The notes below the pieces were generated by a model that was given only the letters and a program-made list of their open reading frames with translations, had not been told where the DNA came from and did not search any database. From contig OY968780.1 in assembly GCA_963695385.1 (NCBI GenBank), positions 363,339 through 427,338 of the forward strand: 64,000 nt of DNA, read 5' to 3'. This document shows positions 6,967 through 51,761 of the stretch, piece by piece. Position 1 is the first letter of the stretch. Every line of letters starts with the position of its first letter. A program made the position numbers and the translations under genes. The DNA comes from an uncultured Coriobacteriia bacterium. Its GTDB lineage: Bacteria > Actinomycetota > Coriobacteriia > Anaerosomatales > PALSA-660.

Positions 6967-7201
6967 CGACGCGCGTCCGGTCGAGGAGCTGCGCTTCTCC
7001 GAGGCGCTGGCGGAACTCGAGGACATCGTGGCCGGTCTCGAGAGCGGTCAGCTCGATCTCGAGGACAGCCTTCTGCGCTACGAGCGCGGCGTCTCGCTGC
7101 TAAGAGCGTGCCAGCGCAAGTTGGCCGAGGCCGAGCAGCGAGTGACCATGCTGATGGGGGAGCTCGAGACTGGCGGGAACGAGGACGGGCCCGCGTCCTG
7201 A
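6959..7201 (+). CDS. xseB: exodeoxyribonuclease VII small subunit
   Basis: ATG 6959 overlaps the xseA stop. The FSEALAELEDIV..LE.G.L.LE.S...YE.G sequence is typical of XseB. The ORF track start at 6836 is an out-of-context extension. Confidence 0.85.
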   Translation: MTDDARPVEELRFSEALAELEDIVAGLESGQLDLEDSLLRYERGVSLLRACQRKLAEAEQRVTMLMGELETGGNEDGPAS

Positions 7202-17038: not shown

Positions 17039-17602
17039 CTAGGTCCGACGCGGTCCCTTGGAGAACGTGCGGATCGCCTCGAGCACCTGAGCGTCGGCAG
17101 AATCCCCGACGCGAGGCGTGGGGTGGACACCGTGCTCCCCAAGCACCTCGAGAACCGCCGCCGCGGCCGCCGGAACGGACGCCTCGACGCCTGGAGTCAG
17201 CCCGATCTCGAACGTGGTCATGTCCTCGATCTGGATGCCGATGCACTCGGCCTTAGGCGTGGCGCCGATCAGCATCGCGGCCTGGAGGACGTCCACGAAG
17301 CGGATGTCGTGGAGCGAGTGCATCACCTGGTTGGGCGCCATCTCCTCGGGCGAGAGGCGGACTATCGTGCCGGGTTCCTCGCCGGTGCCGTCCACCGCGT
17401 CGACGACCAGCATGTAGTCGCACTCGCGGAACAGGTGAAGGATGCTCATGCCCATCGTGCCGACATCCAGCACCTTGACGTTGTCGGGGAACTCGAGTGC
17501 GGCCATCAGTGACTCGACGACGCGGACGCCGACACCCTCGTCACGAAGGAGAGGGTTTCCCATCCCCATGACCGTTACGCGCTCGGCGGGCACCGTTACC
17601 AC
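17039..17602 (-). CDS. [NiFe] hydrogenase maturation endopeptidase (HyaD/HybD family)
   Basis: Contains VMGMGNPLLRDEGVGVRVV, then VVDAVD and a later His motif. Overlaps the upstream small-subunit stop by 7 nt. The exact start codon is uncertain (GTG 17602 or a downstream GTG). Confidence 0.85.
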   Translation of the reverse strand: MVTVPAERVTVMGMGNPLLRDEGVGVRVVESLMAALEFPDNVKVLDVGTMGMSILHLFRECDYMLVVDAVDGTGEEPGTIVRLSPEEMAPNQVMHSLHDIRFVDVLQAAMLIGATPKAECIGIQIEDMTTFEIGLTPGVEASVPAAAAAVLEVLGEHGVHPTPRVGDSADAQVLEAIRTFSKGPRRT

Positions 17603-18720
17603 TCGCCCGGGTCTTCGGCGACGGCTGCCTGCACAGGCGCCTCCGCGGTCTCCTCGAGTCGGCCGCGCGCCGTCTCGGCCACGCCGTACAGAGCGAACCC
17701 GCCTGCCACTCCGGCGGCCGAGATGGCCGCGACCGTCTCGGGCTGGAGCCCTGTTCCCCAGAGGCCCGTGCCGATCGCGCGTGTCCTCGACAGGAACGGT
17801 GCGTCGTTATCGACCCAGTTGAGGTTGCCGCACCCGATGCAGGGGGAGCCGGACTCTACGCACCAGCTGGCGCGACGGTTCCAGCGCACCCTCGGACAGT
17901 CGGTGAAGGTCTGCGGGCCCTTGCAGCCCATCTTGTACAGACACCAGCCGTTGACCTCGGCCTGCGTCCCGAACTGCTCGACGAACTCGCCGTTCTCGAA
18001 GTGCCCTCGCCTCGGGCAGTTGTCGTGGATGCTCGAGCCGAAGATCAGAGTCGGACGGTTGTGGTCGTCCATGGCCGGAAGCTTGCCCAGCATCAACACG
18101 TCGATGACCACCGCCACGATCCACTCGGGGTTGACCGGGCAGGTCGGCAGGTTGATGGTCTTGGCCGCAAGCTCGGGCATGAAGTCGAGCACGCCCTTGC
18201 CGCCGGCCGGGTTCGGGTTGGCCCGCACCCACCCTCCGTCGACCGCGCAGGAGCCGACGCACACGACGGCGTCGGCCTTGGGAGCGATCTCTTTGAGGAT
18301 ATCCACGCCCGTCCTGCCGCCGATCCTGAGCGTGTTGCCGCCTTCTCCGGTCATGACGGCGCCCTCGGCGATGAGTATGTAGCCACCATCGGCGACCGTC
18401 TTGGCCATGGCGTCCTCGGCCTGCTTGCCGGCCGCAGCCGATATGGTCTCGATGTAGTTGACCGAGAGCAGATCGAGCACGACCGTGGCCACGTCGGGTG
18501 TGTCGACCTGTGCCAGGGATTCGGTGCAGCCCGTGCACAGTCCCATGTCGAACCATATGGCGGGCTTGAGCTTTGCGCCCTTCTCGACCGCGGAGGCTAT
18601 CTGAGGGACATACATCTCGGACAGACCCAGCAGAGCCGCGACGGACCCGCAGTACTTCATGAAGTCGCGGCGGGACACTCCCCGTGCCGCGAGCAGGTCG
18701 TCGATCCACGGTTCCCGCAC
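17596..18720 (-). CDS. [NiFe]/[NiFeSe] hydrogenase small subunit, paralog 1 (Tat signal, C-terminal TM anchor), with no adjacent large subunit
   Basis: Twin-arginine signal SRRDFMKYCGSVAALLG, Fe-S ligand patterns (CTGCTES, HDNCPRRGHF, CLYKMGCKGP, PCIGC) and a hydrophobic tail. The likely start is GTG 18720, 10 nt after GGGGAGG. The ORF-track ATG 18795 adds 25 unconserved residues. Confidence 0.9.
   Translation of the reverse strand: MREPWIDDLLAARGVSRRDFMKYCGSVAALLGLSEMYVPQIASAVEKGAKLKPAIWFDMGLCTGCTESLAQVDTPDVATVVLDLLSVNYIETISAAAGKQAEDAMAKTVADGGYILIAEGAVMTGEGGNTLRIGGRTGVDILKEIAPKADAVVCVGSCAVDGGWVRANPNPAGGKGVLDFMPELAAKTINLPTCPVNPEWIVAVVIDVLMLGKLPAMDDHNRPTLIFGSSIHDNCPRRGHFENGEFVEQFGTQAEVNGWCLYKMGCKGPQTFTDCPRVRWNRRASWCVESGSPCIGCGNLNWVDNDAPFLSRTRAIGTGLWGTGLQPETVAAISAAGVAGGFALYGVAETARGRLEETAEAPVQAAVAEDPGEW
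17784..18706. repeat. 923-bp direct repeat, copy A (core of small-subunit gene)
   Basis: Aligns base-for-base with 24623-25545 at an offset of 6839. I count 12 mismatches and no indels. Similarity stops abruptly at both ends, inside the coding sequence. Confidence 0.9.
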
Positions 18721-18926
18721 GGACGATCTGCCTCCCCGATATGAGTGGTCTGCCACGAATCGTAACTCATGACATGCGCCACGCCGTGCGCTCATGGCCC
18801 GCCGGTGTCGAATGTCCTGATCCGCACCAGTGGTGGTGGTTCGGCGATGCTAGGCATGGCGGTTGCTCGTAACCCACGCATCAAGGGTCGGCGCCGCCAT
18901 CCGGCCGCAGGAGAGTGGGAGCGAAC

Positions 18927-20576
18927 ATGAGCCGGTCGCATGCGAGGGTCATCTTCATGATCCTGCTGTCCGTCGCCCTCGCCGGCGCGTCGCCGTTATC
19001 GTCATTCGCGGAGGCGGACACGGGATTCGGGCTGATCGCCTCCGCGTCGGTGCGCAGCTCGGCTGTGCGGGCGGCATCGGTGAGTATTCTGACGATCTCG
19101 GCTCCGGTATCGGTTTCGCCGGGTTCGCCGGTGTTGATAGTGGGATCGCTCTTCGAGGACGAGGTCGGCGGCTTTCGACCGGACGTTCAGGAGGTCTTCC
19201 TGGAAGCCTCGCCTGACGGCGTGTCGGGATGGACCGTGGTCGAGAGCACGTGGACAGACACGGAGATAGTGCCGGACAGCTACGGCTTCGTCCTGTATCC
19301 GAGCGGCTCGAGGTACTACCGGGTGCGCTACCCGGGCAGCGCATTTCCCGCGGCGACGAGCGACACGGTTCACGTAGCGGTCGAAGTGGCACCATCCCCG
19401 ACGCCGTCACCCACCCCGCCGCCGACACCGACGCCGACACCGACGCCGACGCCGATGCCGACGCCGACGCCTGCGCCGACACCGACGCCTGCGCCGACAC
19501 CGACGCCTGCGCCGACACCGACGCCGACGCCGACGCCTGCGCCGACACCGACGCCTGCGCCGACACCGACGCCGACACCCGCTCCCACGCCCACGCCGCA
19601 GCCAACACCCACGCCGACGTCTGACCCCACGCCGACGCCCGTCCCGCCCTCTCGCGCGCCCGTGGTCATCACCCTTGAGACCCCGACTTCGCTTATCGTG
19701 CCGGGGGCTTCACCGGTGCTTACGGGCGTAGTGAAGAACGCCTCGACTGGTGGTTCAATCGTTGGGATCCCGGTCGCTTTGCAGACATCTCCCGACGGCG
19801 CCACAGCTTGGATCGCCGTTTCCGAATCCAACAGCGACGTCAACGGTCACGCGTGCGAGGTGACCGTCACGACGAGCGCTCACTTCCGTGCCACCTTCGC
19901 CGGCGACGACGCCCACCTTCCCGCCACCAGCGAGCCGAAGCGGCTGGAAGTGGACAGCTCCGTGTCTTTGACTCTCGGCGCCTCTCAGGTCACTGTGGCG
20001 CCGGGGGGCAGCACGACCCTGTCGGGCTCGATCGCCGACGCCTCAGGCGCCCCGCTGACAGGTCCACGGGTCTCCTTGCAGGCGTCGCCTGACGGGATCG
20101 CCGGCTGGATCCCGCTGGGCACGCCGGTGACGGCCACGGGCGGCACGCTGACCTTCTCGATCCGGCCTTCCGCCACCGCCTTCTATCGCGCCGACTTCGC
20201 CACGGACGGGATCTATGCGGCCGCCACCAGCGCCGCGGTGCGGGTGGCGGTCTCGACGTCCAAGCCGGCATCCGCGCTCACGATCGCGACGAATCGCACG
20301 CTTCTCAGGATCGGCAAGGCAGCCACCATTTCCGGGCGCGCGACGCCCAGAGCCGGAATGGTCGGCGCGAGGCTGCGGCTTCTGGTGAAGAAGGCCCGCA
20401 GCTCGCGCTGGACCCTTCTGACGCGGCCGACCATCCGGGGAACCGCCGCGTCCTGGTCGTACCGTCTGACGCTGCGCAGGGGGTCGCCGAAGGGCACGCA
20501 TCAGTTCAAGGTCGTCTACGACGGCGGCGCCTTCCGGTCCTCCTCCTCGCGCGTGATCAAGATCGCCCTGCGCTAG
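18927..20576 (+). CDS. secreted surface protein with four repeated beta-sandwich-like modules and a Pro/Thr-rich linker
   Basis: Signal peptide ([30 protein letters not shown]). Four roughly 95-aa modules share ...SPDG..GW......... and F/YR..F/Y.....A.TS..V.V patterns. A PTPTPA-type linker is also present. Confidence 0.7.
19398..19648 (+). repeat. coding low-complexity tandem repeat (18-nt unit ccgacaccgacgcctgcg, encoding PTPTPA)
   Basis: Read directly from the sequence. It encodes [69 protein letters not shown]. Confidence 0.85.
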
Positions 20577-21919
20577 CCCGGGTGAAGAATGTTCGGAGCG
20601 GGGACGAGCCCGTCGTAGCAGTCGTGTCGAGTCAGGGGAACGCCGCTGCGGCCGTCATCGGCGCGCGCGAGCAGGGTCTGGTACACGGTGGTGAATCCCG
20701 CGGAGAAGCCGTAGGCGCACGCCGACATGTAGAGGCGCCAGATCCGGTAGGTGAGTTCATCCGATGCATCGCACGCGGCATCGCGCTGCCGCTCCAGGTT
20801 CGAGACCCAATGCCTCAGCGTGAGGGCGTAGTGCTCGCGCAGGCTTTCCACGTCGCGGACGTCGAACCCCGCCGTCTCGGCGGCGGCCAGCGTGGTGTGT
20901 ATCGGTACGAGCTCGCCATCGGGGAACACGTAGCGCTGCCAGAAGGTGGGGCCGGTCTCCGTCGGCACTCGACCGGCCGACTGGCGCACGGGGCTGTTCG
21001 CGATGCCGTGGTTCATGAACAGCCCGCCCGGCCGCAGCAGCCGGAATGCCCGGTCGAAGTAGTCGCCCAGCTTCGCTGCGCCGACGTGCTCGAACATGCC
21101 GACGCTGACGATCTTGTCGTAGCAGCCCCAGTCCGTCACCTCGCGGTAGTCCCGGACCTCGGCACGGCACCGATCGGCGAGCCCCGCGCGCGAGAAGCGC
21201 TCATTGGCGAGTCTCGCCTGCGGATCGCTGAGCGTGACGCCGAGCGCATCGGCACCGTATCTGGACGCGGCATGCATCATCAGCCCGCCCCATCCGCATC
21301 CGACGTCCAGCAGGCGGTCCCCCTCGCGCAGTCGCAGCTTCCGGCAGATCAGGTCCAGCTTCTGCTCTTGGGCGGTATCCAGGTCATCGCCGGCATCCTG
21401 GAAATAGGCGCACGAATAGACCATCCTCTGGTCCAGGAACAGCCGGTAGAAGTCGTTCGACACGTCGTAGTGATATGAGACGGCCGTCCGATCGCGACGT
21501 AGGGAATGGGTGGTACCGTGCATCTCCGCCGCCCGGTCGAGGCGGCTGGTCCCGGAGGATGGAAGTCTCGCCACGCGCTGAAGGGCGTTGACCGCGGTCC
21601 GCAGATCCCTGCGCCGCAGCAGCGCGCGGTCCGCCACCGCGATCAGGCTCTCGACGTCACCTTCCACATCGATGTCATCGGTGAGATACGCTTCTCCGAC
21701 CGTGAGGGTGCCGGGATTGAGGAGGATCCGTTTCACCACGGAGGGGTTTCTCAGGACCAGGGTGAACCTTGTGCCCATGCCCGGGTCGGGCCCCAAGGTG
21801 CTCCCGTCCCAAAGGCGCACGCAGAAGTCGAACGGGTGGAGGTCGGAAAGCACCAAGTCCAGGAGCTCGATCGTGGAGCGAGCGTGTCGATCGAGTTCGG
21901 GCGCGAGAGCCGTTCGCAT
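20573..21919 (-). CDS. cfa: cyclopropane-fatty-acyl-phospholipid synthase family SAM methyltransferase
   Basis: Contains [22 protein letters not shown], the SAM motif [10 protein letters not shown] and SVGMFEHVG. Its stop overlaps the stop of the convergent surface-protein gene by 4 nt. Confidence 0.85.
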
Positions 21920-22059
21920 CTGTCATCCCCCGTCCGCGCGTGTTGCCGCGACTCGTCACCGACGACTACGGAGTACCCGCGATGGACCGTTCAGCCACGA
22001 CGAACCGCGAGGCCATCCTGCGAGCGGCCCGAACGCCGGGTGAGCGGCGCAGGACGCGC

Positions 22060-22091
22060 AAAGGCCCGGGGCACGCGGCCCCGGGCCTTTT
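22060..22091. terminator. bidirectional hairpin terminator between the cytochrome b gene and the cfa promoter region
   Basis: A 12-bp perfect stem (AAAGGCCCGGGG / CCCCGGGCCTTT) with a 7-nt loop. A/T runs flank the stem on both strands. Confidence 0.5.
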
Positions 22092-22135
22092 CGCGTCCTG
22101 CGCTGTCATTGATGCACAGCGGCGCCTGGATGAGT

Positions 22136-22786
22136 CTAGCCTTCGTCCTTCGCGGGCGTCTCGATCCAGGCAAACATCAGCTTCGTCGGAGCGACTCCGT
22201 GGATGTTGGCCAGGTACACGTGCACCATGGTGAACAGGATCAGGATCCACATGCCGAAGTAGTGGATCAGGCGCATCGTCATCAGACCCCCCACGGCCTC
22301 CAGCCCCGCGTTGAAGAACGGCCAGATCGACCACTGCGTGGCTGGTCCGTAGATCGCGAATCCGGTGTAAGCCATCAGGTAGGTGATCGGGACCGTGGCC
22401 AGATAAGAGATCTTCTGGAGTGGCCCGTACTTACCCGATATGACGTGCTCCTTGCGCAGGAACAGGTAGAACTTCACGTTCTCCCAGAACTGGTGTCGGT
22501 TCTCCTCCTGCGGCAACCAGTTCTTGACGTCGACCTCCTTCTCGCGCGATCCGAGAAGGACCGCGTCCTTCACCCAGAACGACAGGATGATCCGCGCTGT
22601 CAGGTTCACCACGACCAGATACATCAGCACGAAGTGGATGGCGCGGGCTCCCTGCATGGTCCATGCGAAGAACGGATAGTGGATGTAGAAGCCCGTGAAG
22701 GCGAGTCCGATGATGCAGATCAGGTTCACCCAGTGGATCATCACGAATACCAGCGGGTGCGCCTCACGATAGTGTCCGTGGGACAT
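22136..22786 (-). CDS. Ni/Fe-hydrogenase b-type cytochrome subunit (HyaC-like)
   Basis: Four TM helices with conserved His residues (HWVNL, RAIHFV, RLIHYF, MVHVYL). ATG 22786 lies 5 nt after the extended large-subunit stop and is preceded by AGGTGA. The ORF-track start at TTG 22873 is only the alternative frame of the large-subunit tail. Confidence 0.85.
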   Translation of the reverse strand: MSHGHYREAHPLVFVMIHWVNLICIIGLAFTGFYIHYPFFAWTMQGARAIHFVLMYLVVVNLTARIILSFWVKDAVLLGSREKEVDVKNWLPQEENRHQFWENVKFYLFLRKEHVISGKYGPLQKISYLATVPITYLMAYTGFAIYGPATQWSIWPFFNAGLEAVGGLMTMRLIHYFGMWILILFTMVHVYLANIHGVAPTKLMFAWIETPAKDEG

Positions 22787-22791
22787 GTCGA

Positions 22792-24426
22792 TCACCTGCC
22801 TGCGGGCTTCGACATCACGAACGAGGACTTCTTTGTCTTGGGTTCTATCAACTGAACCCCGCAGCCGATTCAAGGATCGAAGCTGTGGATGATACGCAGG
22901 GCCTCGAGGGGCTTCTCGACGTCCGCCACCGGCGCGCCCACGAGCGCTTCCTCCAGAGGTCCTCGGACGCCCTTGGCGTCACGGGGACAACAGTCCCAAG
23001 TAGAGGGCGAGACAACCTGGTAGTTGGCGATCTTCCCATCCTTGATGTCGATCCAGTGGGCCACCGACCCGCGGGGCGCCTCCCACAGGCCGGCCCCGGC
23101 GCCGTTCGCCTCGACAGGCTCGGTGAAGAACTTCGCCTCGCCACCCTTGATCGCCGAGACGAGCTCGCCTATCCACTTTCCCATCTCATCGGCGATGAAC
23201 TTGGTCTCCAGGTTGCGTGCTGCGACGCGGCCCAACAGGGAGATCAGGACTTCCGGCTTCCCGGCCACTCCCAGCGCTGAGAGCGTGGTGTCGATCAGGG
23301 CCGTGACCTCGGGCACGCCGGAGAGGTACGCAACCAGCATGCGGGAGAGGGGGCCGACCTCCATCGGCTTCTCATTGAGGCGCGGCGCCTTGATCCACGA
23401 GTACTGAGCGGCCGTGTCATACGAGGTGAACTTCGCCTGGGTCTGTCCTTGGGCGGGATTGAGGCCCGAGGGGGAGGAGTACCAAGAGCGCTCGACGTAC
23501 TCCTTGACCTGCTTGACGTCGGGGTCGACGACCTGCAGCTTCCCGTCGAAGATGGCTCCTCGAGGCAGCACGCGCTTCTTGGGGTCGAGACTCTGAGACT
23601 CGAACACGCCCCAGGACAGGAAGTTCTTGCAGCCCTGCCCGTAGCCCGCGGCGTCGATGTAGTAAGGGGCGATCGCCAAGGTGTCGGGGATCATCGTGTT
23701 GGTGACCCAGTCGCTGACGCGTTGCCATCTGTAGAGGACATCATCGAGCTTCTCTTCCGTGGGCATCCAGGCGGTGCCCCCGGGCAGAGAGGTCATGAAA
23801 TGCGGGAACTTGCCGCCCATCACGGCGATGATCGCGGCCGCCTCGGCCTGCATCTCGAGCGCCTCGAGGTAGTGAGCCACGGCGATGAGGTTCAGCTCCG
23901 GGGGGAGCTTCATCGCGGGATGACCCCAGTAACCGTTCGTGAAGATGGACAGCTGCCCGCCGTCGACGAACGCCTTCACTCGCCTCTGGATCGCGCCGAA
24001 GTCCGCCGTGCTCGTTCCGGCCTTCTCGGCCAAGGCGTACGTGTCGGCGATGTTGGCCTTCAACGCGGAGACGACGTCGACGTAGTCCAGCGCAGTGAGC
24101 GTGTAGAACCACAGGATGTGGCTGTGGAGGGACTCGGCGCCCTCGATGATGTTGCGCACGATGCGGGCACCGTCGGGCGGGGTCAGTTTGAGCGCGTCCT
24201 CCGTCGCCTTGGTGGAGGCATGCCCGTGCGGTATGGGACACACGCCGCATATGCGTTGCGCCACGTAGAAGGCGTCCGCGGGTGCTCGACCCTTCAGCAC
24301 GGTCTCCATGCCGCGGTAGAGGCTGCCCGAGGACCAGGCGTCGGTGATCTTGCCGTCGACCACTTCGCATTCGACGCGAAGGTGGCCCTCGATCCTGGTG
24401 ACGGGGTCGATGATCGCTCTGGCCAT
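22792..24426 (-). CDS. [NiFeSe] hydrogenase large subunit, with TGA 22872-22870 read as selenocysteine (544 codons)
   Basis: The N-terminal RICGVCPIPH (RxCGxCxxxH) motif is present. The C-terminus reads HSFDP-TGA-IGCGVQ, so TGA replaces the first Cys of DPCxxCxxH. The frame then stays open for 25 more codons to TGA 22794-22792. ATG 24426 overlaps the small-subunit stop (TGATG). Confidence 0.8.
22840..22859 (-). promoter_or_regulatory. candidate bacterial SECIS hairpin
   Basis: On the minus strand, GGGUUC-AGUUGAUA-GAACCC forms a 6-bp stem with an 8-nt loop containing GU. It begins 10 nt 3' of the in-frame UGA. Confidence 0.45.
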
Positions 24427-25568
24427 CAGATATCGCCTCCCTTCGTGCTCTTGTGTTTCTTGTCCCAGGCCTTCTCGGTCTCGATCGGCGGACCCGACGT
24501 ACGGCCCGCGGCGGCAGATGCGATGCCATGTACCGCCAGACCGACGACCGCCGCACCACCGACTACGACCCCGACGGTCTCCGGCCGTACTCCGCCAAGA
24601 CCCGGCAAGCTGACATTGGTCATCCTCGACAGGAACGGTGCGTCGTTGTCGACCCAGTTGAGGTTGCCGCACCCGATGCAGGGGGAGCCGGACTCGACGC
24701 ACCAGCTGGCGCGGCGGTTCCAGCGCACCCTCGGGCAGTCGGTGAAGGTCTGCGGGCCCTTGCAGCCCATCTTGTAGAGACACCAGCCGTTGACCTCGGC
24801 CTGCGTCCCGAACTGCTCGACGAACTCGCCGTTCTCGAAGTGCCCTCGCCTCGGGCAGTTGTCGTGGATGCTCGAGCCGAAGATCAGGGTCGGACGGTTG
24901 TGGTCGTCCATGGCCGGCAGCTTGCCCAGCATCAACACGTCGATGACCACCGCCACGATCCACTCGGGGTTGACCGGGCAGGTCGGCAGGTTGATGGTCT
25001 TGGCCGCAAGCTCGGGCATGAAGTCGAGCACGCCCTTGCCGCCGGCCGGGTTCGGGTTGGCCCGCACCCACCCTCCGTCGACCGCGCAGGAGCCGACGCA
25101 CACGACGGCGTCGGCCTTGGGAGCGATCTCTTTGAGGATATCCACGCCCGTCCTGCCGCCGATCCTGAGCGTGTTGCCGCCTTCTCCGGTCATGACGGCG
25201 CCCTCGGCGATGAGTATGTAGCCGCCATCGGCGACCGTCTTGGCCATGGCGTCCTCGGCCTGCTTGCCGGCCGCCGCCGATATGGTCTCGATGTAGTTGA
25301 CCGAGAGCAGATCGAGCACGACCGTGGCCACGTCGGGTGTGTCGACCTGTGCCAGGGACTCGGTGCAGCCCGTGCACAGTCCCATGTCGAACCATATGGC
25401 GGGCTTGAGCCTGGCGCCCTTCTCGACCGCGGAGGCTATCTGAGGGACATACATCTCGGACAGACCCAGCAGAGCCGCGACGGACCCGCAGTACTTCATG
25501 AAGTCGCGGCGGGACACTCCCCGTGCCGCGAGCAGGTCGTCGATCTCGTCACGCGTTCCCTTCGCCAT
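24426..25568 (-). CDS. [NiFe]/[NiFeSe] hydrogenase small subunit, paralog 2 (Tat signal, C-terminal TM anchor), in an operon with the large subunit and cytochrome b
   Basis: ATG 25568 lies 8 nt after AAGGAGG. The Tat motif is SRRDFMKY. The core is identical to paralog 1 except for one K/R change, while the N-terminal 8 aa and the C-terminal roughly 60 aa differ. Confidence 0.9.
   Translation of the reverse strand: MAKGTRDEIDDLLAARGVSRRDFMKYCGSVAALLGLSEMYVPQIASAVEKGARLKPAIWFDMGLCTGCTESLAQVDTPDVATVVLDLLSVNYIETISAAAGKQAEDAMAKTVADGGYILIAEGAVMTGEGGNTLRIGGRTGVDILKEIAPKADAVVCVGSCAVDGGWVRANPNPAGGKGVLDFMPELAAKTINLPTCPVNPEWIVAVVIDVLMLGKLPAMDDHNRPTLIFGSSIHDNCPRRGHFENGEFVEQFGTQAEVNGWCLYKMGCKGPQTFTDCPRVRWNRRASWCVESGSPCIGCGNLNWVDNDAPFLSRMTNVSLPGLGGVRPETVGVVVGGAAVVGLAVHGIASAAAGRTSGPPIETEKAWDKKHKSTKGGDI
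24623..25545. repeat. 923-bp direct repeat, copy B (core of small-subunit gene)
   Basis: See copy A (17784-18706). There are 12 mismatches, 11 synonymous and 1 K/R. Confidence 0.9.
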
Positions 25569-46430: not shown

Positions 46431-46580
46431 TCTCGTGGCCTAGCGTCCATGGCAGGTCTCGGACTATCATCGCCGAAATGTTACGGAGGTCTCCACGCAT
46501 CCGCGAGGGTCGGCTTTGCCATACCCGCGCATCCGCCTGGAGCGTACACGCGACTTTGGAGGTCGAAGAGGGGTGAGCGA

Positions 46581-47888
46581 GTGACGGTACGCACATTCCG
46601 AGGCGGCGTGCATCCTCCGGACCACAAGGAGGCCACCGCGGGCCGGGCGACTGAGCTGGGTCCCATGGCCGCGCAGTTGGTCGTGCCGATGAGCCAGCAC
46701 CTTGGCGCGCCGTGCCGACCGACCGTGGAGAAGGGTGAGCTGGTGCAACGAGGCCAGGTCATCGGCGATGTCGATGCGATGGTCAGCGCGCCGGTCCACA
46801 GCCCCGTCAACGGCGAGGTGGTCGCCGTGGGCAAGGTGCTGACCGCCGGCGGCATGCGAGTCGATGCCGTGACCATCGCACCGGACCCCGAGCAGGACTT
46901 CGAGCAGTTCGTGCCGGTGCAGGCCGCCGACGAAAGTGTCCCCGCTCTTGCGCGCGCCGCCGGCATCGTAGGTATGGGGGGCGCCGCCTTCCCGGCCGCG
47001 GTGAAGCTCCTTCCGCCCAAGCACTTCACGATCGACACCGTCATCCTCAACGGGTGCGAATGCGAACTCTTCCTGACCTGTGACCATCGGGTGATGATCG
47101 AGCAGACGGCGCAGGTGATGGCGGGCGCGCGTCACATCGCGACGGCCGTCGGCGCGAAGGACGTCTTCGTCGCGGTTGAGGACAACAAACCCGACGCGAT
47201 CGACGCACTGCGCAAGGCCGCGGCCGGCACCGGTATCGAGATCGTGCCGCTGCGGACGAGGTACCCGCAGGGCGCCGAGAAGCAACTCATCTTCGCGGTG
47301 ACCGGCAGGGCGGTTCCGAGGGGGCAGCTGCCGGCGTCGGTCGGTGTGCTGGTCCACAACGTCGGCACCGCCGTGGCGATAACAGACGCCGTGGAGCGGC
47401 ACAAGCCGTTGATGGAGCGGGTGGTCACGGTCTCGGGCCAGGTCGCCAAGCCTGGCAACTACCGGGTCCTGATCGGTACCCCGATCTCCGCGCTGATCGA
47501 AGCGGCCGGCGGGTTGGTCGAGCCGGTAGGGCGGGTGATCGCCGGCGGACCAATGACCGGCGCGCCGCTCGCGACTCTGGACGTTCCGGTCGTGAAGGGG
47601 ACATCCGGGGTCGTCGCTTTGACCCCGGCGCAATCCGCGCCCCTGGTCGACGGCGATCAGCCCTGCATCCGCTGCGGGAGTTGCGTCGAGGTCTGTCCGA
47701 TGACTCTGCACCCGTTCGCGATCGCGTCCTACGCGGATCGGCGCATGTGGGACGGGGTCGAGCGCTTCCATGCTCTCGACTGCATCGAGTGCGGTTGCTG
47801 CAGCTACATGTGCCCCACTCGGCGTCCGCTCGTCCAGCTCATCAAGACGGGCAAGGCCGCCCTCATGCTGAAGGGGGCGAAGAAGTGA
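46581..47888 (+). CDS. rnfC: Rnf electron-transport complex subunit C
   Basis: Contains FRGGVHPP, GMGGAAFP and two CxxCxxCxxxCP motifs. GTG 46581 follows a GAGGGG-type RBS. ORF-track 46449 adds non-conserved residues. Confidence 0.9.
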   Translation: MTVRTFRGGVHPPDHKEATAGRATELGPMAAQLVVPMSQHLGAPCRPTVEKGELVQRGQVIGDVDAMVSAPVHSPVNGEVVAVGKVLTAGGMRVDAVTIAPDPEQDFEQFVPVQAADESVPALARAAGIVGMGGAAFPAAVKLLPPKHFTIDTVILNGCECELFLTCDHRVMIEQTAQVMAGARHIATAVGAKDVFVAVEDNKPDAIDALRKAAAGTGIEIVPLRTRYPQGAEKQLIFAVTGRAVPRGQLPASVGVLVHNVGTAVAITDAVERHKPLMERVVTVSGQVAKPGNYRVLIGTPISALIEAAGGLVEPVGRVIAGGPMTGAPLATLDVPVVKGTSGVVALTPAQSAPLVDGDQPCIRCGSCVEVCPMTLHPFAIASYADRRMWDGVERFHALDCIECGCCSYMCPTRRPLVQLIKTGKAALMLKGAKK

Positions 47889-48949
47889 GCGACGAGAAGA
47901 AGGAAGCGCCGGTCGAGCAGCGCATGCCGGTCGTCGCACCGGCCCCGCATGTCGCGGCCGAGCAGAGCAGCCGCACGATCATGCTCTGGGTCATCGGCGC
48001 TCTCACCCCCGCCACGCTCTGGGGAATGTGGTGCTTCATAGCGGCCGATGCGAGCCTGGGCATACGGTCCCTGGTGACTCTGGTCGTCGGGATCGGCTCG
48101 TGCGTTCTGACGGAGGCTCTCTGGAACATCTTGCGCAAGGAGCGGCAGACCATCGGCGATCTCACCGCCGTCATCACGGGTCTGCTGCTGGCGATGTCGG
48201 TTCCGCCCCTCACGCCATGGTGGATCACGATGTTCGGCGGCATAGTCGCCATCGCGCTGGCGAAGATGCTCTTCGGCGGCCTCGGGTTCAACCTGTTCAA
48301 CCCGGCGCTGGTGGGTCGTGCGGTCGTCATGATGTCGTGGCTCGGCGTCATGTCCGACGTGAAGCCCTACCCCGGCGGATGGTTCCGCGCCCTGTCCATG
48401 CCCGCGGCGGGCAAGTTCGACGCCATCAGCGGAGCCACGCGGCTGGCCATCGCCTCGGCCGACCGGGCCGCCCTGGGAGCGTATCACTACGATCTTTCGG
48501 CCCAATACGGTCCGCTGCTGTTCAAGAACCTCGAGGGGTCGCTCGGCGAGGTCTCGGGCGCTCTGCTGATCCTCGGCGGGCTCGTTCTGATCGGCAAGCA
48601 GATCATCGACTGGCGAATCCCCGTCGGCTACATCGGGTCGGTCGCGCTCCTTTCCTGGGCATTCGGGTCCGACCCGATCTTCAACGTGCTCGCCGGCGGG
48701 GTCCTGCTCGGCGCGTTCTTCATGGCGACGGACTACGTCTCCTCATGCGTCACCAGGAACGGGAGACTCGTGTTCGGCATCGGGTGCGGCGTGTTCAACA
48801 TCGTCACGAGGTTCTTCGGCCCGATGCCAGAGACGACCACCTTCGCGATCCTGTTCATGAACGGCCTGGCACCTCTCATCGACCGCATGTTCATGCCCAA
48901 GCCGTTCGGCTGGATGAAGCCCGGGAAGGAGGCGAAGGCGAATGCTTAA
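47885..48949 (+). CDS. rnfD: Rnf complex subunit D
   Basis: Polytopic membrane protein containing FNPALVGR and SGATRL. GTG overlaps the rnfC stop. Confidence 0.85.
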   Translation: MSDEKKEAPVEQRMPVVAPAPHVAAEQSSRTIMLWVIGALTPATLWGMWCFIAADASLGIRSLVTLVVGIGSCVLTEALWNILRKERQTIGDLTAVITGLLLAMSVPPLTPWWITMFGGIVAIALAKMLFGGLGFNLFNPALVGRAVVMMSWLGVMSDVKPYPGGWFRALSMPAAGKFDAISGATRLAIASADRAALGAYHYDLSAQYGPLLFKNLEGSLGEVSGALLILGGLVLIGKQIIDWRIPVGYIGSVALLSWAFGSDPIFNVLAGGVLLGAFFMATDYVSSCVTRNGRLVFGIGCGVFNIVTRFFGPMPETTTFAILFMNGLAPLIDRMFMPKPFGWMKPGKEAKANA

Positions 48950-49559
48950 GTTCTACTTCAAGCTGGGCATCCCGGTGCTTGTGACGTGCATCGTCGCCTC
49001 CGCCGGCCTCGCTGTGACCTATGCGGTGACCAAGGACCGCATCGCGGAGCAGGACCGTCTGGCCAAGGAGAGATCGCTGCGTGTCGTGCTCGCCGATGTC
49101 GGAGCGAAGGGCACCTTCGAGCAGATCAAGGACGCGGCGGTTCTCAAGAAGGCGGCCGTCGCGGCCGGCGAGACCCCCGTCTACGCCCTCTACCGGGCGC
49201 TTGACGGCAGCGGTGGTCAGATCGGATGGGGCGTCCTGGTCGGACCCCGCGGCTACGGGGGTCCCATATCCATGGCGGTAGGTGTGGATAGGAACGGGAA
49301 AGTCACCGGCGCCACAGTAGTGTCCATGAACGAGACCCCGGGTCTCGGAACCAAGGTCAACACCGAGATGGTCAAGGGCAAGCCCTGGCTGCAGGGCTTC
49401 GTGGGAGTCGATGTGGTCGAGGGCGATGCGCTGGTGGCCGAGGTGGACACGATCACAGGAGCGACCAAGTCGTCCCGAGGCGTCAGGAACGGCGTTCAGG
49501 CGGCAGCGAACATCTACGCACAAGCGCTGGCCGGCTTGGGAGAGGTGAGCGGCAAGTGA
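48942..49559 (+). CDS. rnfG: Rnf complex subunit G (FMN-binding)
   Basis: An N-terminal TM helix, ETPGLG, and the flavinylation-site motif TGATKSS. Confidence 0.85.
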   Translation: MLKFYFKLGIPVLVTCIVASAGLAVTYAVTKDRIAEQDRLAKERSLRVVLADVGAKGTFEQIKDAAVLKKAAVAAGETPVYALYRALDGSGGQIGWGVLVGPRGYGGPISMAVGVDRNGKVTGATVVSMNETPGLGTKVNTEMVKGKPWLQGFVGVDVVEGDALVAEVDTITGATKSSRGVRNGVQAAANIYAQALAGLGEVSGK

Positions 49560-50215
49560 ATGAATGGATGCGCGTCTTCCGCAGCGGGATATCGCTGGAG
49601 AACCCGCTGACCGTGCTGATGATCGGTCTGTGTTCCACCCTCGCCGTGTCGTCGAAGCTCGAGGGCTCCCTGTTCATGGGGATCGCGGTCATCTTCGTGC
49701 TCGTCATGAGCAACGTTCTGATCTCGGCCACACGCAAGTTCATCCCGGACGAGGTCCGGATCCCGATCTTCATCGTGATCATCGCGTCGTTCGTCACGAT
49801 CGTCGACCTGGTGATGAAGGCGTTCCTGCCCAGCGTGTACGCCTTCCTCGGGGTGTGGATCCCCCTCATCGTCGTCAACTGCATCGTCTTGGGACGCGCG
49901 GAGGCCTTCGCCTACCACAACACGATCTGGATCTCCGTCGCAGACGGCATCGGGATGGGGATCGGATACACCATCATCATCGCGGGACTCGCCGCGTTCC
50001 GGGAGCTCTTCGGCACGGGCCAGATCGTGTTTCTCAACGCCACACTGATATCGCTGCCTGCCTTCTACAAACCCCCGAACATCCTGATGCTCTTCCCGGG
50101 CGCCTTCATTCTCTTCGGACTGATCGTCGCGGCATCGCATGCGCTCAATCGCAGGAGTCGGGCGAAAGAGGCCGCCCAGGCGGCCGCCCTCAAGATGAGG
50201 ACGGAGGCGGCCTGA
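49556..50215 (+). CDS. rnfE: Rnf complex subunit E
   Basis: Contains LENP......GLCSTLAV and IPLIVVNCIVLGRAE. Confidence 0.9.
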   Translation: MNEWMRVFRSGISLENPLTVLMIGLCSTLAVSSKLEGSLFMGIAVIFVLVMSNVLISATRKFIPDEVRIPIFIVIIASFVTIVDLVMKAFLPSVYAFLGVWIPLIVVNCIVLGRAEAFAYHNTIWISVADGIGMGIGYTIIIAGLAAFRELFGTGQIVFLNATLISLPAFYKPPNILMLFPGAFILFGLIVAASHALNRRSRAKEAAQAAALKMRTEAA

Positions 50216-50216
50216 G

Positions 50217-50837
50217 GTGAGCACACTGACGCAGTTCGCTCTACTGCTTGTGGGATCGGCGCTTGTCAGCAACATCCTGCTTACGAGGTTCATCGCGCTG
50301 TGCAGCTTCTTCGGCATCAGCAACGATATGAACACGTCGATCGGGATGAGCCTCGCCGTCATCTTCGTAATGGTGATGGCCTCCGCCGGAACGTGGCTCT
50401 TCTACTACCTACTTCTCGTACCGCTGGGTGTGGGTGAGTTCCTCTACATCCCGGCGTTCATCCTCGTCATCGCCGCTCTTGTCCAGTTCGTGGAGATGTA
50501 CCTGCGCAAGTACAGCCCCGCTCTCTATCGCGCCATGGGCATCTACCTTCCGCTCATAACCACGAACTGCGCGGTGTTGGCGGCGGCCACGGAGGCCGTG
50601 AAGCCCGGCTTCTTCAAGATGAACATGGCGTACCACTTCACGTTCGGCGAGACCCTCGTCTACAACCTGGGCGTGGCGCTGGGCTTCGGATTCGCGCTCC
50701 TGTGCTTCACGGCGATACGCGAGCGTCTCGAACTCGCGCCGGTGCCCCGCTCGCTGCGCGGGACTCCCATGGCGTTCATTACGGCCGGTCTGCTCTCGCT
50801 CGGCTACATCGGCCTCGGCTCGCTCTTCGGTCTGTAG
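50217..50837 (+). CDS. rnfA: Rnf complex subunit A
   Basis: Contains ALVSNILLT.F...C.F and LPLITTNCAVL. Confidence 0.9.
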   Translation: MSTLTQFALLLVGSALVSNILLTRFIALCSFFGISNDMNTSIGMSLAVIFVMVMASAGTWLFYYLLLVPLGVGEFLYIPAFILVIAALVQFVEMYLRKYSPALYRAMGIYLPLITTNCAVLAAATEAVKPGFFKMNMAYHFTFGETLVYNLGVALGFGFALLCFTAIRERLELAPVPRSLRGTPMAFITAGLLSLGYIGLGSLFGL

Positions 50838-50849
50838 GGGAGGCGCACA

Positions 50850-51761
50850 ATGGACTTCATGGTGGTCGTCAAGGCGGTAGGTGCGCTCAGCTTCATCGGC
50901 GCGATCGCCGCGGTCATGCTGGCGACCGCGGCGCAGAAGTTCCACGTCGAGATAGACCCGCGCATCCAGGAGATCCTGGATGCCCTGCCGGGCTCGAATT
51001 GCGGCGCTTGCGGCAACCCGTCGTGCTTCGCCACGGCGGAGGGGATCGCCGAGGAGCGCCTCGTCGTCACCGCGTGCGTCGCGGGTGGCCAGGAGGTCGC
51101 GGACAGCATCGCGACCATCATGGGTCTGGAGAGCTGTGCCGTGGCGTCCGTCGTGTCGTGCCGGCACTGCGGTGGCGGCACCAGCGCGACCCGCGCCTTC
51201 GACTACGGCGGCGCGCAGTCCTGCGCGGCTGTCAACAAGCTCGCAGGCGGTTCGATCCTGTGCCCCAACGGCTGTCTAGGGTACGGGGACTGCGTCAACT
51301 CGTGCCCATTCGACGCCATGAAGCTGGATGATCGGGGTCTGCCCGTCATCGACCTGGCGAAATGCACCGGGTGCGGGATCTGCGTGACCGAGTGTCCTCG
51401 CGGAACCCTGAACCTGCTCCAGCTGGTGCCCGATTCGGGGCCGATCATCGTCCGCTGCAGTTCTCATGACAAGCCCGCCATCCGCAGGCACTATTGCACC
51501 CGGTATTGCAGCGCCTGCAAGAAGTGCGAGAAGGCCTGTCCGGAGGACGCCATACACGTCATCGACTGGCTCGCGGTCGTGGACTACGACAAGTGCACCG
51601 GATGCAACGCATGCGTGGACGTATGTCCTCAGGACTGCATCGACGTCAGCGGGCGCGCGTCCGGCCTGAACGCCGACGTGACCGACGGCGCCTCAAGGAC
51701 AGTCCCGGGCCTCGAGGTCAAGGTGCCCGTGGCATCCGCTGGGGAGGCAGACGGGGCGTGA
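50850..51761 (+). CDS. rnfB: Rnf complex subunit B (N-terminal anchor plus poly-ferredoxin)
   Basis: CGACGNPSC, followed by several CxxCxxCxxxCP clusters. Confidence 0.9.
   Translation: MDFMVVVKAVGALSFIGAIAAVMLATAAQKFHVEIDPRIQEILDALPGSNCGACGNPSCFATAEGIAEERLVVTACVAGGQEVADSIATIMGLESCAVASVVSCRHCGGGTSATRAFDYGGAQSCAAVNKLAGGSILCPNGCLGYGDCVNSCPFDAMKLDDRGLPVIDLAKCTGCGICVTECPRGTLNLLQLVPDSGPIIVRCSSHDKPAIRRHYCTRYCSACKKCEKACPEDAIHVIDWLAVVDYDKCTGCNACVDVCPQDCIDVSGRASGLNADVTDGASRTVPGLEVKVPVASAGEADGA

Follow-up and report, generated by a model that had tools for sequence, protein, structure and literature searches.

The 64,000-nucleotide stretch of contig OY968780.1 analyzed here (hereafter, the window), from an uncultured Coriobacteriia bacterium, encodes on its minus strand the precursor of a hydrogenase large subunit (22792–24426), whose reading frame contains an in-frame UGA as codon 519. 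Judged from this DNA and that of its relatives, UGA-519 is very probably a selenocysteine (Sec) codon that is read with the help of a hairpin resembling a selenocysteine insertion sequence (SECIS), located immediately downstream. The UGA recodes a nickel-ligand column of the enzyme, the tail that follows it is translated, the hairpin is constrained at the RNA level, and the gene is part of an operon that also encodes an anchored small subunit and a b-type cytochrome. A preliminary description of this DNA had proposed that the UGA encodes Sec in place of the first Cys of the DPCxxC motif. This central proposal has gained considerable support from the presence of TGA in 29 related loci, from the truncation of 119 of 120 homologues at the same residue, and from compensatory changes in the hairpin.

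Recoding of the nickel-ligand column

The minus-strand open reading frame (ORF) starts at the ATG at 24426 (MARAIIDPVTRIEGH) and runs to ...EALRIIHSFDP, where it is interrupted by the TGA at 22872–22870. Past this codon, the same frame continues with ATC GGC TGC GGG GTT CAG ... (IGCGVQLIEPKTKKSSFVMSKPAGR) and is closed by a second TGA at 22794–22792, all of which lie where the preliminary description had placed them. The full-length gene comprises 544 sense codons, including UGA-519. The large subunit matches PF00374 with 564 bits (the cut-off is 25.8), and the truncated form spans profile positions 1–501 of 508. The N-terminal Ni/Fe-ligand motif, RICGVCPIPH (residues 58–67; 24226–24255, minus strand), is of the RxCGxCxxxH type and is intact, as had been stated earlier, and R58, I59, C60, G61, V62, C63, P64, I65, and H67 are invariant in an alignment of 22 sequences.

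The UGA (22870–22872, minus strand; residue 519) occupies the position of the first Cys in the Ni-ligand motif near the C-terminus, DP[C/U]xxC. In HMMER alignments to solved structures of nickel-iron-selenium ([NiFeSe]) hydrogenases, residue 524 of the query corresponds to residue 494 of the 495-residue chain 2wpn_B (Desulfovibrio vulgaris Hildenborough) and to residue 497 of the 498-residue chain 1cc1_L (Desulfomicrobium baculatum). Counting back from this position, the TGA falls on residue 489 of 2wpn_B and residue 492 of 1cc1_L, which we take to be the selenocysteines of those enzymes. The alignment to the structures thus agrees with the earlier placement of the TGA in the DPCxxC column. 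The full DPCxxCxxH pattern that had been invoked applies to the window protein in part: the first Cys column is the UGA and the second Cys follows at +3, but the final residue is Gln and not His, which the preliminary description had not remarked upon. This residue, Gln525 (CAG; 22852–22854, minus strand), gives the motif the form DP-U-IGC-GV-Q. It aligns to the last residue of the mature chains in the Protein Data Bank (PDB), which end one residue past query position 524 with the conserved His. Gln in this position was found only in the window, in L161 (85% identical; GCA_025361335.1; 11573–11575), in L001 (80% identical), and in an unrelated Cys-type metagenome locus, L134. Because the window, L161, and L001 form one subclade, the Gln is fixed in that subclade and is not an error. 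The C-terminal His of [NiFe] hydrogenases is the residue behind which the maturation protease cuts and coordinates a Mg (or Fe) ion close to the active site. Residue 525 is followed by a 19-residue extension, LIEPKTKKSSFVMSKPAGR (22795–22851, minus strand), which is kept as [VL][IFTS]EPKTGK... in relatives and which, by analogy with known [NiFe] hydrogenase maturation, is presumably cut off by a maturation endopeptidase.

The position of the UGA and the frame beyond it are conserved across the family. When the read-through protein was searched against a large protein collection, with C substituted for U, 119 of the best 120 matches (64–100% identity) stopped exactly at ...[HR]SFDP, and the remaining one had a frameshifted tail. 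Since these proteins come from gene callers and end there, the whole family is cut at the UGA column, in keeping with the earlier expectation that standard gene callers would truncate the gene. A homologous NCBI record, MDO8963082.1, is likewise a 518-residue protein that ends at the UGA, with Sec unmarked. At the DNA level, relatives were collected as 80 loci from species-representative genomes, 80 loci from metagenomes, and 3 loci by exact protein look-up. TGA occupies the ligand column in 29 of these loci (L001–L015, L020, L021, L074, L080–L087, L095, and L161), and other relatives have TGC or TGT there. All 29 TGA loci stay in frame through [ILVM]-[GA]-C-[GA]-V-[HQ] and reach a stop 21–27 codons later. 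In the Coriobacteriia loci, the extended frame ends beside the start of the cytochrome b gene, the product of which begins MSH..YREAHP. Among 23 genes of the Sec clade, Gly+2, Cys+3, Val+5, Thr+12, and Lys+14 past the UGA are invariant, and the third base of the Gly+2 codon is free to vary (entropy of 1.73 bits). Invariant residues combined with a free third base indicate protein-level selection, and therefore the tail past the UGA is translated.

A codon bias was also observed on the upstream side of the UGA (22873–22878 in the window, minus strand, spanning the Asp and Pro codons). All 23 Sec-clade genes have CCT as the Pro codon next to the UGA, and 20 of the 23 have GAT as the Asp codon before that, although the GC content at third codon positions (GC3) of these genomes is ∼0.85. 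In the Cys-type sister clade, the Pro codon is variable (entropy of 1.45 bits) and Asp is encoded by GAC. The CCT/GAT bias represents a synonymous constraint upstream of the UGA, which could reflect termination context or pairing.

The hairpin downstream of the UGA

The SECIS-like hairpin (22840–22859, minus strand) starts 10 nt after the UGA and consists of a 5′ arm, GGGUUC (22859–22854), a loop, AGUUGAUA (22853–22846), and a 3′ arm, GAACCC (22845–22840). Both arms, their distance from the UGA, and the GU in the loop had been pointed out in the preliminary description, and the loop G and U prove to be conserved in relatives. When alignment columns are numbered from the U of the UGA, columns 14–20 pair with columns 27–33 in 20 of 24 distinct Sec-type sequences. 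The consensus hairpin has a 7-bp stem, G[GC][GC]UUCA/UGAA[GC][GC]C, and a CGUGAU loop, and within the loops of Sec-type hairpins one U is invariant and one G is nearly invariant. The OPB41-like genes (L011–L014) contain another 7-bp hairpin, UGUCCAC-GUG-GUGGACA, which is shifted by one register. The stem reaches 6 bp or more in all 24 Sec-type sequences vs 45% of 118 Cys-type sequences.

The pattern of substitutions within the stem follows the pairing. Pairs 14–33 and 15–32 swap between G-C and C-G in five and six sequences, respectively, and in one of these swaps a synonymous Gly change (GGG to GGC) is matched by a Pro-to-Arg change (CCC to CGC). The covariation score of the stem is 0.159, compared with 0.054 ± 0.020 in shuffled alignments; none of 500 shuffles scored higher, and the signal breaks down once the partner columns are shifted against each other. 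In addition, the stem keeps the A/T-ending codons GTT, ATT, and GAA despite the high GC3, whereas the Cys-type sister clade has G/C-ending codons at these positions. The hairpin is under RNA-level selection.

A covariance model was built from 18 relatives, with the window, L161, and L001 excluded. It identified a single site in the 64 kb window, at 22825–22872 on the minus strand (40.5 bits, E-value of 1.9e-8; the runner-up scored 11.3 bits), so the search with a SECIS model that the preliminary description had envisaged returned exactly this site. On held-out loci, the model gave 31–58 bits for Sec-type sites and at most 27 bits for the homologous Cys-type sites. The false positives of the model in the window were located within the two small-subunit genes that are described below, at 18421–18443 (minus strand, 11.3 bits) and 24642–24680 (minus strand, 7.9 bits), and are chance matches to AUCGGCUGCG...CCGGCAAG that do not contain a hairpin.

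The hairpin resembles the SECIS element of Escherichia coli fdhF in its location immediately downstream of the UGA within the coding sequence and in the conserved G and U of the apical loop. The spacer is also similar (10 nt here vs about 11 nt in fdhF). However, the hairpin of the window clade differs from the fdhF element in its sequence and in the size of its loop (6–8 nt), and it has no evident bulged U. An identical hairpin core, GGTTCACGTGATTGAACC, was observed in three Sec-type genes outside the Coriobacteriia clade (L021, 11528–11575; L074, 5647–5694; and L080, 7194–7241), which show 46–57% protein identity and one of which comes from a metagenome-assembled genome (MAG) of Thermoleophilia. 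This identity points to either a very strong SECIS constraint or the transfer of a Sec-type gene between phyla.

Alternative explanations and selenocysteine machinery

Several observations weigh against Sec decoding of UGA-519. Considered alone, the window hairpin is unremarkable: the fold of the 60-nt segment has a z-score of −0.88, 38 of 200 shuffled sequences fold as well or better, and thermodynamic significance of this hairpin by itself was therefore rejected. Its significance derives from the comparison with relatives only and not from its own folding energy. It is also the weakest hairpin of its clade, with 6 bp, an 8-nt loop, and no counterpart of the lower CGG/CCG stem that is common in relatives. 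The covariation counts and model scores come from related, homologous coding DNA and do not represent independent events. A search of Rfam at gathering thresholds and a permissive search of 22740–22920 returned no SECIS-like family; the sole match was a chance match to Ocean-V (E-value of 5.4). As for the decoding machinery, Pfam and NCBIfam scans of ∼50 ORFs of the 64 kb window detected no selA, selB, or selD, neither the window nor 27 Sec-type loci, flanks included, contained a tRNA-Sec, and tblastn detected no SelD in the window or in loci L001–L160, a weak negative given that the E. coli SelD query may be imperfect. A scan for in-frame TGA codons flanked by coding-like sequence revealed no second selenoprotein gene in the window. 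Its sole candidate there, at 7199–7201, is the junction of two genes that lie in the same frame, which synteny with L161 suggests are xseB and a HIT-family gene, and the same scan of 22 Sec-type loci returned only gene junctions and antisense noise. Finally, since Gln replaces His at residue 525, cleavage of the precursor and the C-terminal metal site may differ from the textbook case. As a separate observation, the window contains a complete Rnf-type cluster (46449–51761, plus strand) with homologues of RnfC, D, G, E, A, and B, in which no in-frame TGA candidate was seen; in some bacteria, RnfC is counted among the selenoprotein families (PMC5029168).

Among the alternatives to Sec decoding, the one that survives best is nevertheless improbable. 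It holds that the UGA is read through, but not as Sec: by near-cognate insertion of Trp or Cys, by Cys carried on tRNA-Sec under selenium limitation, or by a lineage-specific reassignment of the codon. Some UGA readthrough is possible in any bacterium. However, TGA is the commonest stop codon among the window ORFs with a coding signature (31 of 58) and also terminates the hydrogenase gene itself, so it has not been reassigned. Trp would be unable to ligate Ni, and low-level misreading would not sustain a respiratory enzyme. The conserved hairpin, which lies at the canonical SECIS distance, fits SelB-dependent decoding and would have no role in simple leakiness.

It is very improbable that the TGA is a true stop and that the product is a 518-residue subunit lacking both C-terminal Ni ligands, encoded by a pseudogene or inactive as a protein. 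Gene callers and database records do end the protein at this codon, and no Sec machinery was seen within the 64 kb window, but 119 of 120 homologues show the same apparent truncation, and it recurs in 29 loci drawn from different assemblies. In these loci, the downstream frame is kept, with invariant residues that include the second ligand Cys, and intact partner genes lie in conserved synteny. A decaying pseudogene would not hold a stop-free, constrained tail across sequences of only 62–85% identity.

There is very little to recommend a split gene, in which the C-terminal 25 residues would be translated on their own as a small peptide that joins the large subunit. A C-terminal peptide of this kind that carries Sec, VhuU, is reportedly found in one archaeal hydrogenase, that of Methanococcus voltae, and in a few relatives (L001, L007, L013, and L080) GTG or ATG directly follows the TGA. 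In most relatives, including the window, the TGA is instead followed by ATC, ATT, or CTC, with neither a start codon nor a ribosome-binding site. Moreover, such a peptide would be devoid of the first ligand, since the ligand column is the TGA itself, whereas the Sec of VhuU is inside its peptide. That the TGA is a miscalled or misassembled TGC or TGT, each one base away from TGA in what is probably a MAG, is effectively excluded by the presence of TGA in 29 independently assembled loci, including the closest relative, L161, with an identical local sequence. The family-wide TGA, the translated tail, and the use of TGA as an ordinary stop together exclude a sequencing error, a pseudogene, and a change of the genetic code to a high degree, and Sec decoding of UGA-519 remains the reading that we favor.

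Operon architecture, hydrogenase type, and neighborhood

The operon is ordered as small subunit, large subunit, and cytochrome b. The small-subunit gene (24426–25568, minus strand; ORF to 25625) encodes a twin-arginine translocation (Tat) signal, SRRDFMK, and a hydrophobic C-terminal tail, GVVVGGAAVVGLAVHGIASAAAG, that forms an anchor, and its product matches PF01058, PF14720, TIGR00391, and TIGR01409 (the Tat signal). By comparison with relatives, translation is inferred to start at Met20 of the ORF. The gene for a HyaC-like hydrogenase b-type cytochrome (22136–22786, minus strand) matches PF01292 with 92 bits and TIGR02125 with 115 bits (the cut-off of the latter is 121.5). Its ATG at 22786 is preceded by AGGTGA and lies 5 nt past the extended stop of the large-subunit gene. 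This tight spacing, which the preliminary description had noted, recurs in relatives, where the extended stop also adjoins the start of the cytochrome b gene. The cytochrome b gene is directly 3′ of the large-subunit gene in L161 and in nearly all of the 80 genome loci that reach that far. A maturation endopeptidase of the HyaD/HybD type (17039–17602, minus strand; TIGR00072, 133 bits) is encoded ∼4.5 kb downstream of the operon; in relatives, its gene comes straight after the cytochrome b gene or after one intervening radical-SAM gene. The Tat signal, the anchor helix, and the adjoining HyaC-type cytochrome b gene are the features by which a membrane-bound, cytochrome b-linked group 1 uptake hydrogenase is recognized.

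From these components and from what is established for related systems, the enzyme is predicted to be a membrane-bound, outward-facing uptake [NiFeSe] hydrogenase. The hairpin would recruit SelB with Sec-tRNA(Sec), allowing the ribosome to pass the UGA and produce the 544-residue precursor. The Ni-Fe centre would be ligated by Sec519, Cys522, Cys60, and Cys63, with the metals inserted by Hyp proteins. After metal insertion, the HyaD/HybD-type protease would remove the 19-residue tail behind residue 525, and the Tat pathway would export the large subunit along with the signal-bearing small subunit. The C-terminal helix of the small subunit and the b-type cytochrome would hold the complex on the membrane, and the cytochrome would hand electrons from H2 to the quinone pool.

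In comparisons with reference enzymes, the large subunit scored 477 bits against the [NiFe] hydrogenase of Desulfovibrio fructosovorans and 470 bits against that of D. vulgaris Miyazaki, vs 349 bits against HysA and 318 bits against the Dm. baculatum enzyme, both of the [NiFeSe] type. The HysA model NF045518 was not passed (441 bits vs a cut-off of 780), nor was the corresponding small-subunit model, NF045520 (217 bits vs 470). By these scores, the window enzyme is not HysA-type and is nearer to standard group 1 [NiFe] enzymes. The earlier [NiFeSe] assignment holds with respect to the UGA on the ligand column, which is found in 29 loci, but does not extend to kinship with the HysA and Dm. baculatum enzymes. 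The best NCBIfam model for the window protein was NF033181 ('NiFeSe_hydrog'), which was narrowly missed (533 bits vs 600). This model is passed by the Sec-type L021 (616 bits) and by Cys-type loci from Nitrospirota and deltaproteobacteria, with 622 bits for L016 and 616 bits for L023, but not by Coriobacteriia genes, such as L012 (507 bits) and L036 (513 bits). It is probably because the window protein and its Coriobacteriia relatives score under this cut-off that the Sec was missed in the NCBI record.

The enzyme shares features with several known groups. Like HysAB of D. vulgaris Hildenborough and the Dm. baculatum enzyme, which belong to group 1a of HydDB, it has a UGA-encoded, putatively Sec residue on the same ligand column, a heterodimer of small and large subunits predicted to be exported by Tat, a fourth Cys at the medial cluster, and a dedicated maturation protease. 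It is unlike them in its lower similarity to these enzymes than to standard [NiFe] enzymes, in having Gln where they have the C-terminal His, and in its HyaC-type cytochrome b and transmembrane anchor; their partner is a soluble cytochrome c3, with no cytochrome b (PMC8020662). The preliminary description had called the pairing with a cytochrome b unusual; it does set the enzyme apart from the characterized [NiFeSe] hydrogenases, but it is the norm in this clade, in its Cys-type sister clade, and among the NF033181 neighbors. The NF033181 family (Nitrospirota, deltaproteobacterial, and other MAGs) has Sec-type (L021) as well as Cys-type members that are followed by cytochrome b and protease genes, and the identical SECIS core is present in L021, L074, and L080; the difference is that the Coriobacteriia proteins remain under its cut-off. 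The group 1i enzymes of Eggerthellaceae (∼47–53% identity) share with the window the order of small subunit, large subunit, cytochrome b, and protease, the extension motif EP.TGK...WGVK, and the medial-cluster Cys, but they have TGC or TGT at the ligand column and a hairpin that is weaker or absent. In the engineered variant C576U of E. coli Hyd-1, Sec occupies the corresponding ligand position of a group 1 enzyme that is likewise membrane-bound and linked to a cytochrome b; unlike the window enzyme, this variant is artificial, is a member of the O2-tolerant group 1d with a special proximal cluster, and incorporates its Sec through an introduced SECIS (PMC8020662).

In an alignment to the small subunits of D. 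gigas and D. vulgaris, the small subunit of the window has Cys in the position of Pro239 of D. gigas (WCV vs WPV), which predicts a medial [4Fe-4S] cluster. Replacement of this Pro by Cys turns the medial [3Fe-4S] cluster into a [4Fe-4S] cluster and is a feature of known [NiFeSe] enzymes. Of 25 scorable Sec-type loci, 24 have the Cys, and it also occurs in 48 Cys-type loci. Since Cys-type relatives share it, the Cys characterizes the wider lineage, and it was rejected as evidence for Sec.

In a rough neighbor-joining tree, computed without support values, the window falls in a 52-sequence clade of the Coriobacteriia type that is split cleanly into 25 Sec-type and 27 Cys-type sequences. The former come from environmental Coriobacteriia MAGs, including EMTCatB1, and the latter from gut Eggerthellaceae. 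HydDB defines group 1i for the enzymes of Coriobacteria and lists [NiFeSe] variants in groups 1a, 3a, and 3c only (PMC5037454). In the first cultured isolates of OPB41 (Anaerosomatales), which grow with H2, the sole membrane-bound uptake hydrogenase was classed as 1i by HydDB, and selenium in the enzyme is not mentioned (PMC9686372). None of the loci fetched here carries the whole-genome shotgun prefixes of these Anaerosoma and Parvivirga isolates (JALNTY and JAMCCO). The Eggerthellaceae sister clade, the shared operon, and the 1i call for the OPB41 isolates suggest that the window enzyme also belongs to group 1i. In the literature searched, NiFeSe and Coriobacter occur together in the HydDB paper only, without being connected there (PMC5037454). 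Transcripts of a three-gene NiFe hydrogenase cluster of EMTCatB1 (Coriobacteriaceae sp.; the genome of L012) ranked in the top 10% on a biocathode (PMC7943316), and this expressed cluster is probably the L012 locus.

These relationships allow a broader reading, to which we assign an even chance. According to this reading, Sec would be both ancestral and universal as a Ni ligand in the respiratory uptake hydrogenase of environmental Coriobacteriia, including the OPB41/Anaerosomatales-like lineage, and group 1i would hold a natural, membrane-bound, quinone-reducing [NiFeSe] enzyme, which would have gone unrecognized because the protein records that were checked end at the UGA. Sec would have been replaced by Cys once, on the branch of gut Eggerthellaceae, and the subclade of the window would have exchanged the C-terminal His for Gln. 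Because that His is the cleavage site and a Mg/Fe ligand, maturation or the metal site may be altered in the Gln subclade.

The region between the operon and the protease gene is organized differently from that of the relatives. A second, intact small-subunit gene (17596–18795, minus strand), with the same Pfam and NCBIfam matches as the operon copy and no adjacent large-subunit gene, is located directly upstream of the protease gene and overlaps its start by 7 nt. Its segment 17784–18706 is 98.7% identical to 24623–25545 of the operon copy, and the signal-peptide end of the gene and the C-terminal anchor tail differ; the tail has no match in related loci. This suggests a recent gene conversion or duplication, and an assembly artefact could also account for the second copy. 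At least 16 Sec-type relatives contain, between the cytochrome b and protease genes, a HemN/HemW-like radical-SAM gene of ∼438 residues with a CxxxCxxC motif (for example, L161, 12493–13809, and L001, 12511–13833; also L162 and L163), which is absent from the whole 64 kb window. Positions 17600–22140 hold instead a cyclopropane-fatty-acid-synthase-type methyltransferase (20573–21919, minus strand), a secreted Ig-like protein (18915–20576, plus strand), and the second small-subunit gene. The product of ORF 18915–20576 has a signal peptide and weak matches to bacterial Ig-like domains, and within this ORF an 18-nt tandem repeat in 13 copies (19398–19639, plus strand) encodes a Pro-Thr-rich linker. 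The syntenic remainder comprises a T2SSE response regulator, a TRAM methyltransferase, a CRP regulator, a HAD hydrolase, a transketolase, and an inositol monophosphatase.

In current descriptions, [NiFeSe] hydrogenases form a small group, comprising soluble enzymes of the periplasm that use cytochrome c3 and occur in sulfate reducers and methanogens (PMC8020662). It appears essentially right to regard the present case as a known mechanism, UGA/SECIS-directed Sec as a Ni ligand, in a setting that had not been recorded: Actinomycetota, with a membrane-anchored, cytochrome b-linked, group 1i-like enzyme. Sec would then also be used throughout a clade of Actinomycetota enzymes that combine a cytochrome b partner with a membrane anchor. 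As the natural counterpart of the engineered Hyd-1 C576U, its enzymes would offer a system for probing the role of selenium in a quinone-linked, uptake-biased architecture, and the Cys-type clade of gut Eggerthellaceae would complete a natural Sec/Cys pair for comparison. Because the homologous large-subunit records, including MDO8963082.1, stop at the UGA, they lack half of the active-site ligands. A possible selenium requirement should also be weighed in metabolic reconstructions and in the H2-based cultivation of these subsurface and wetland bacteria.

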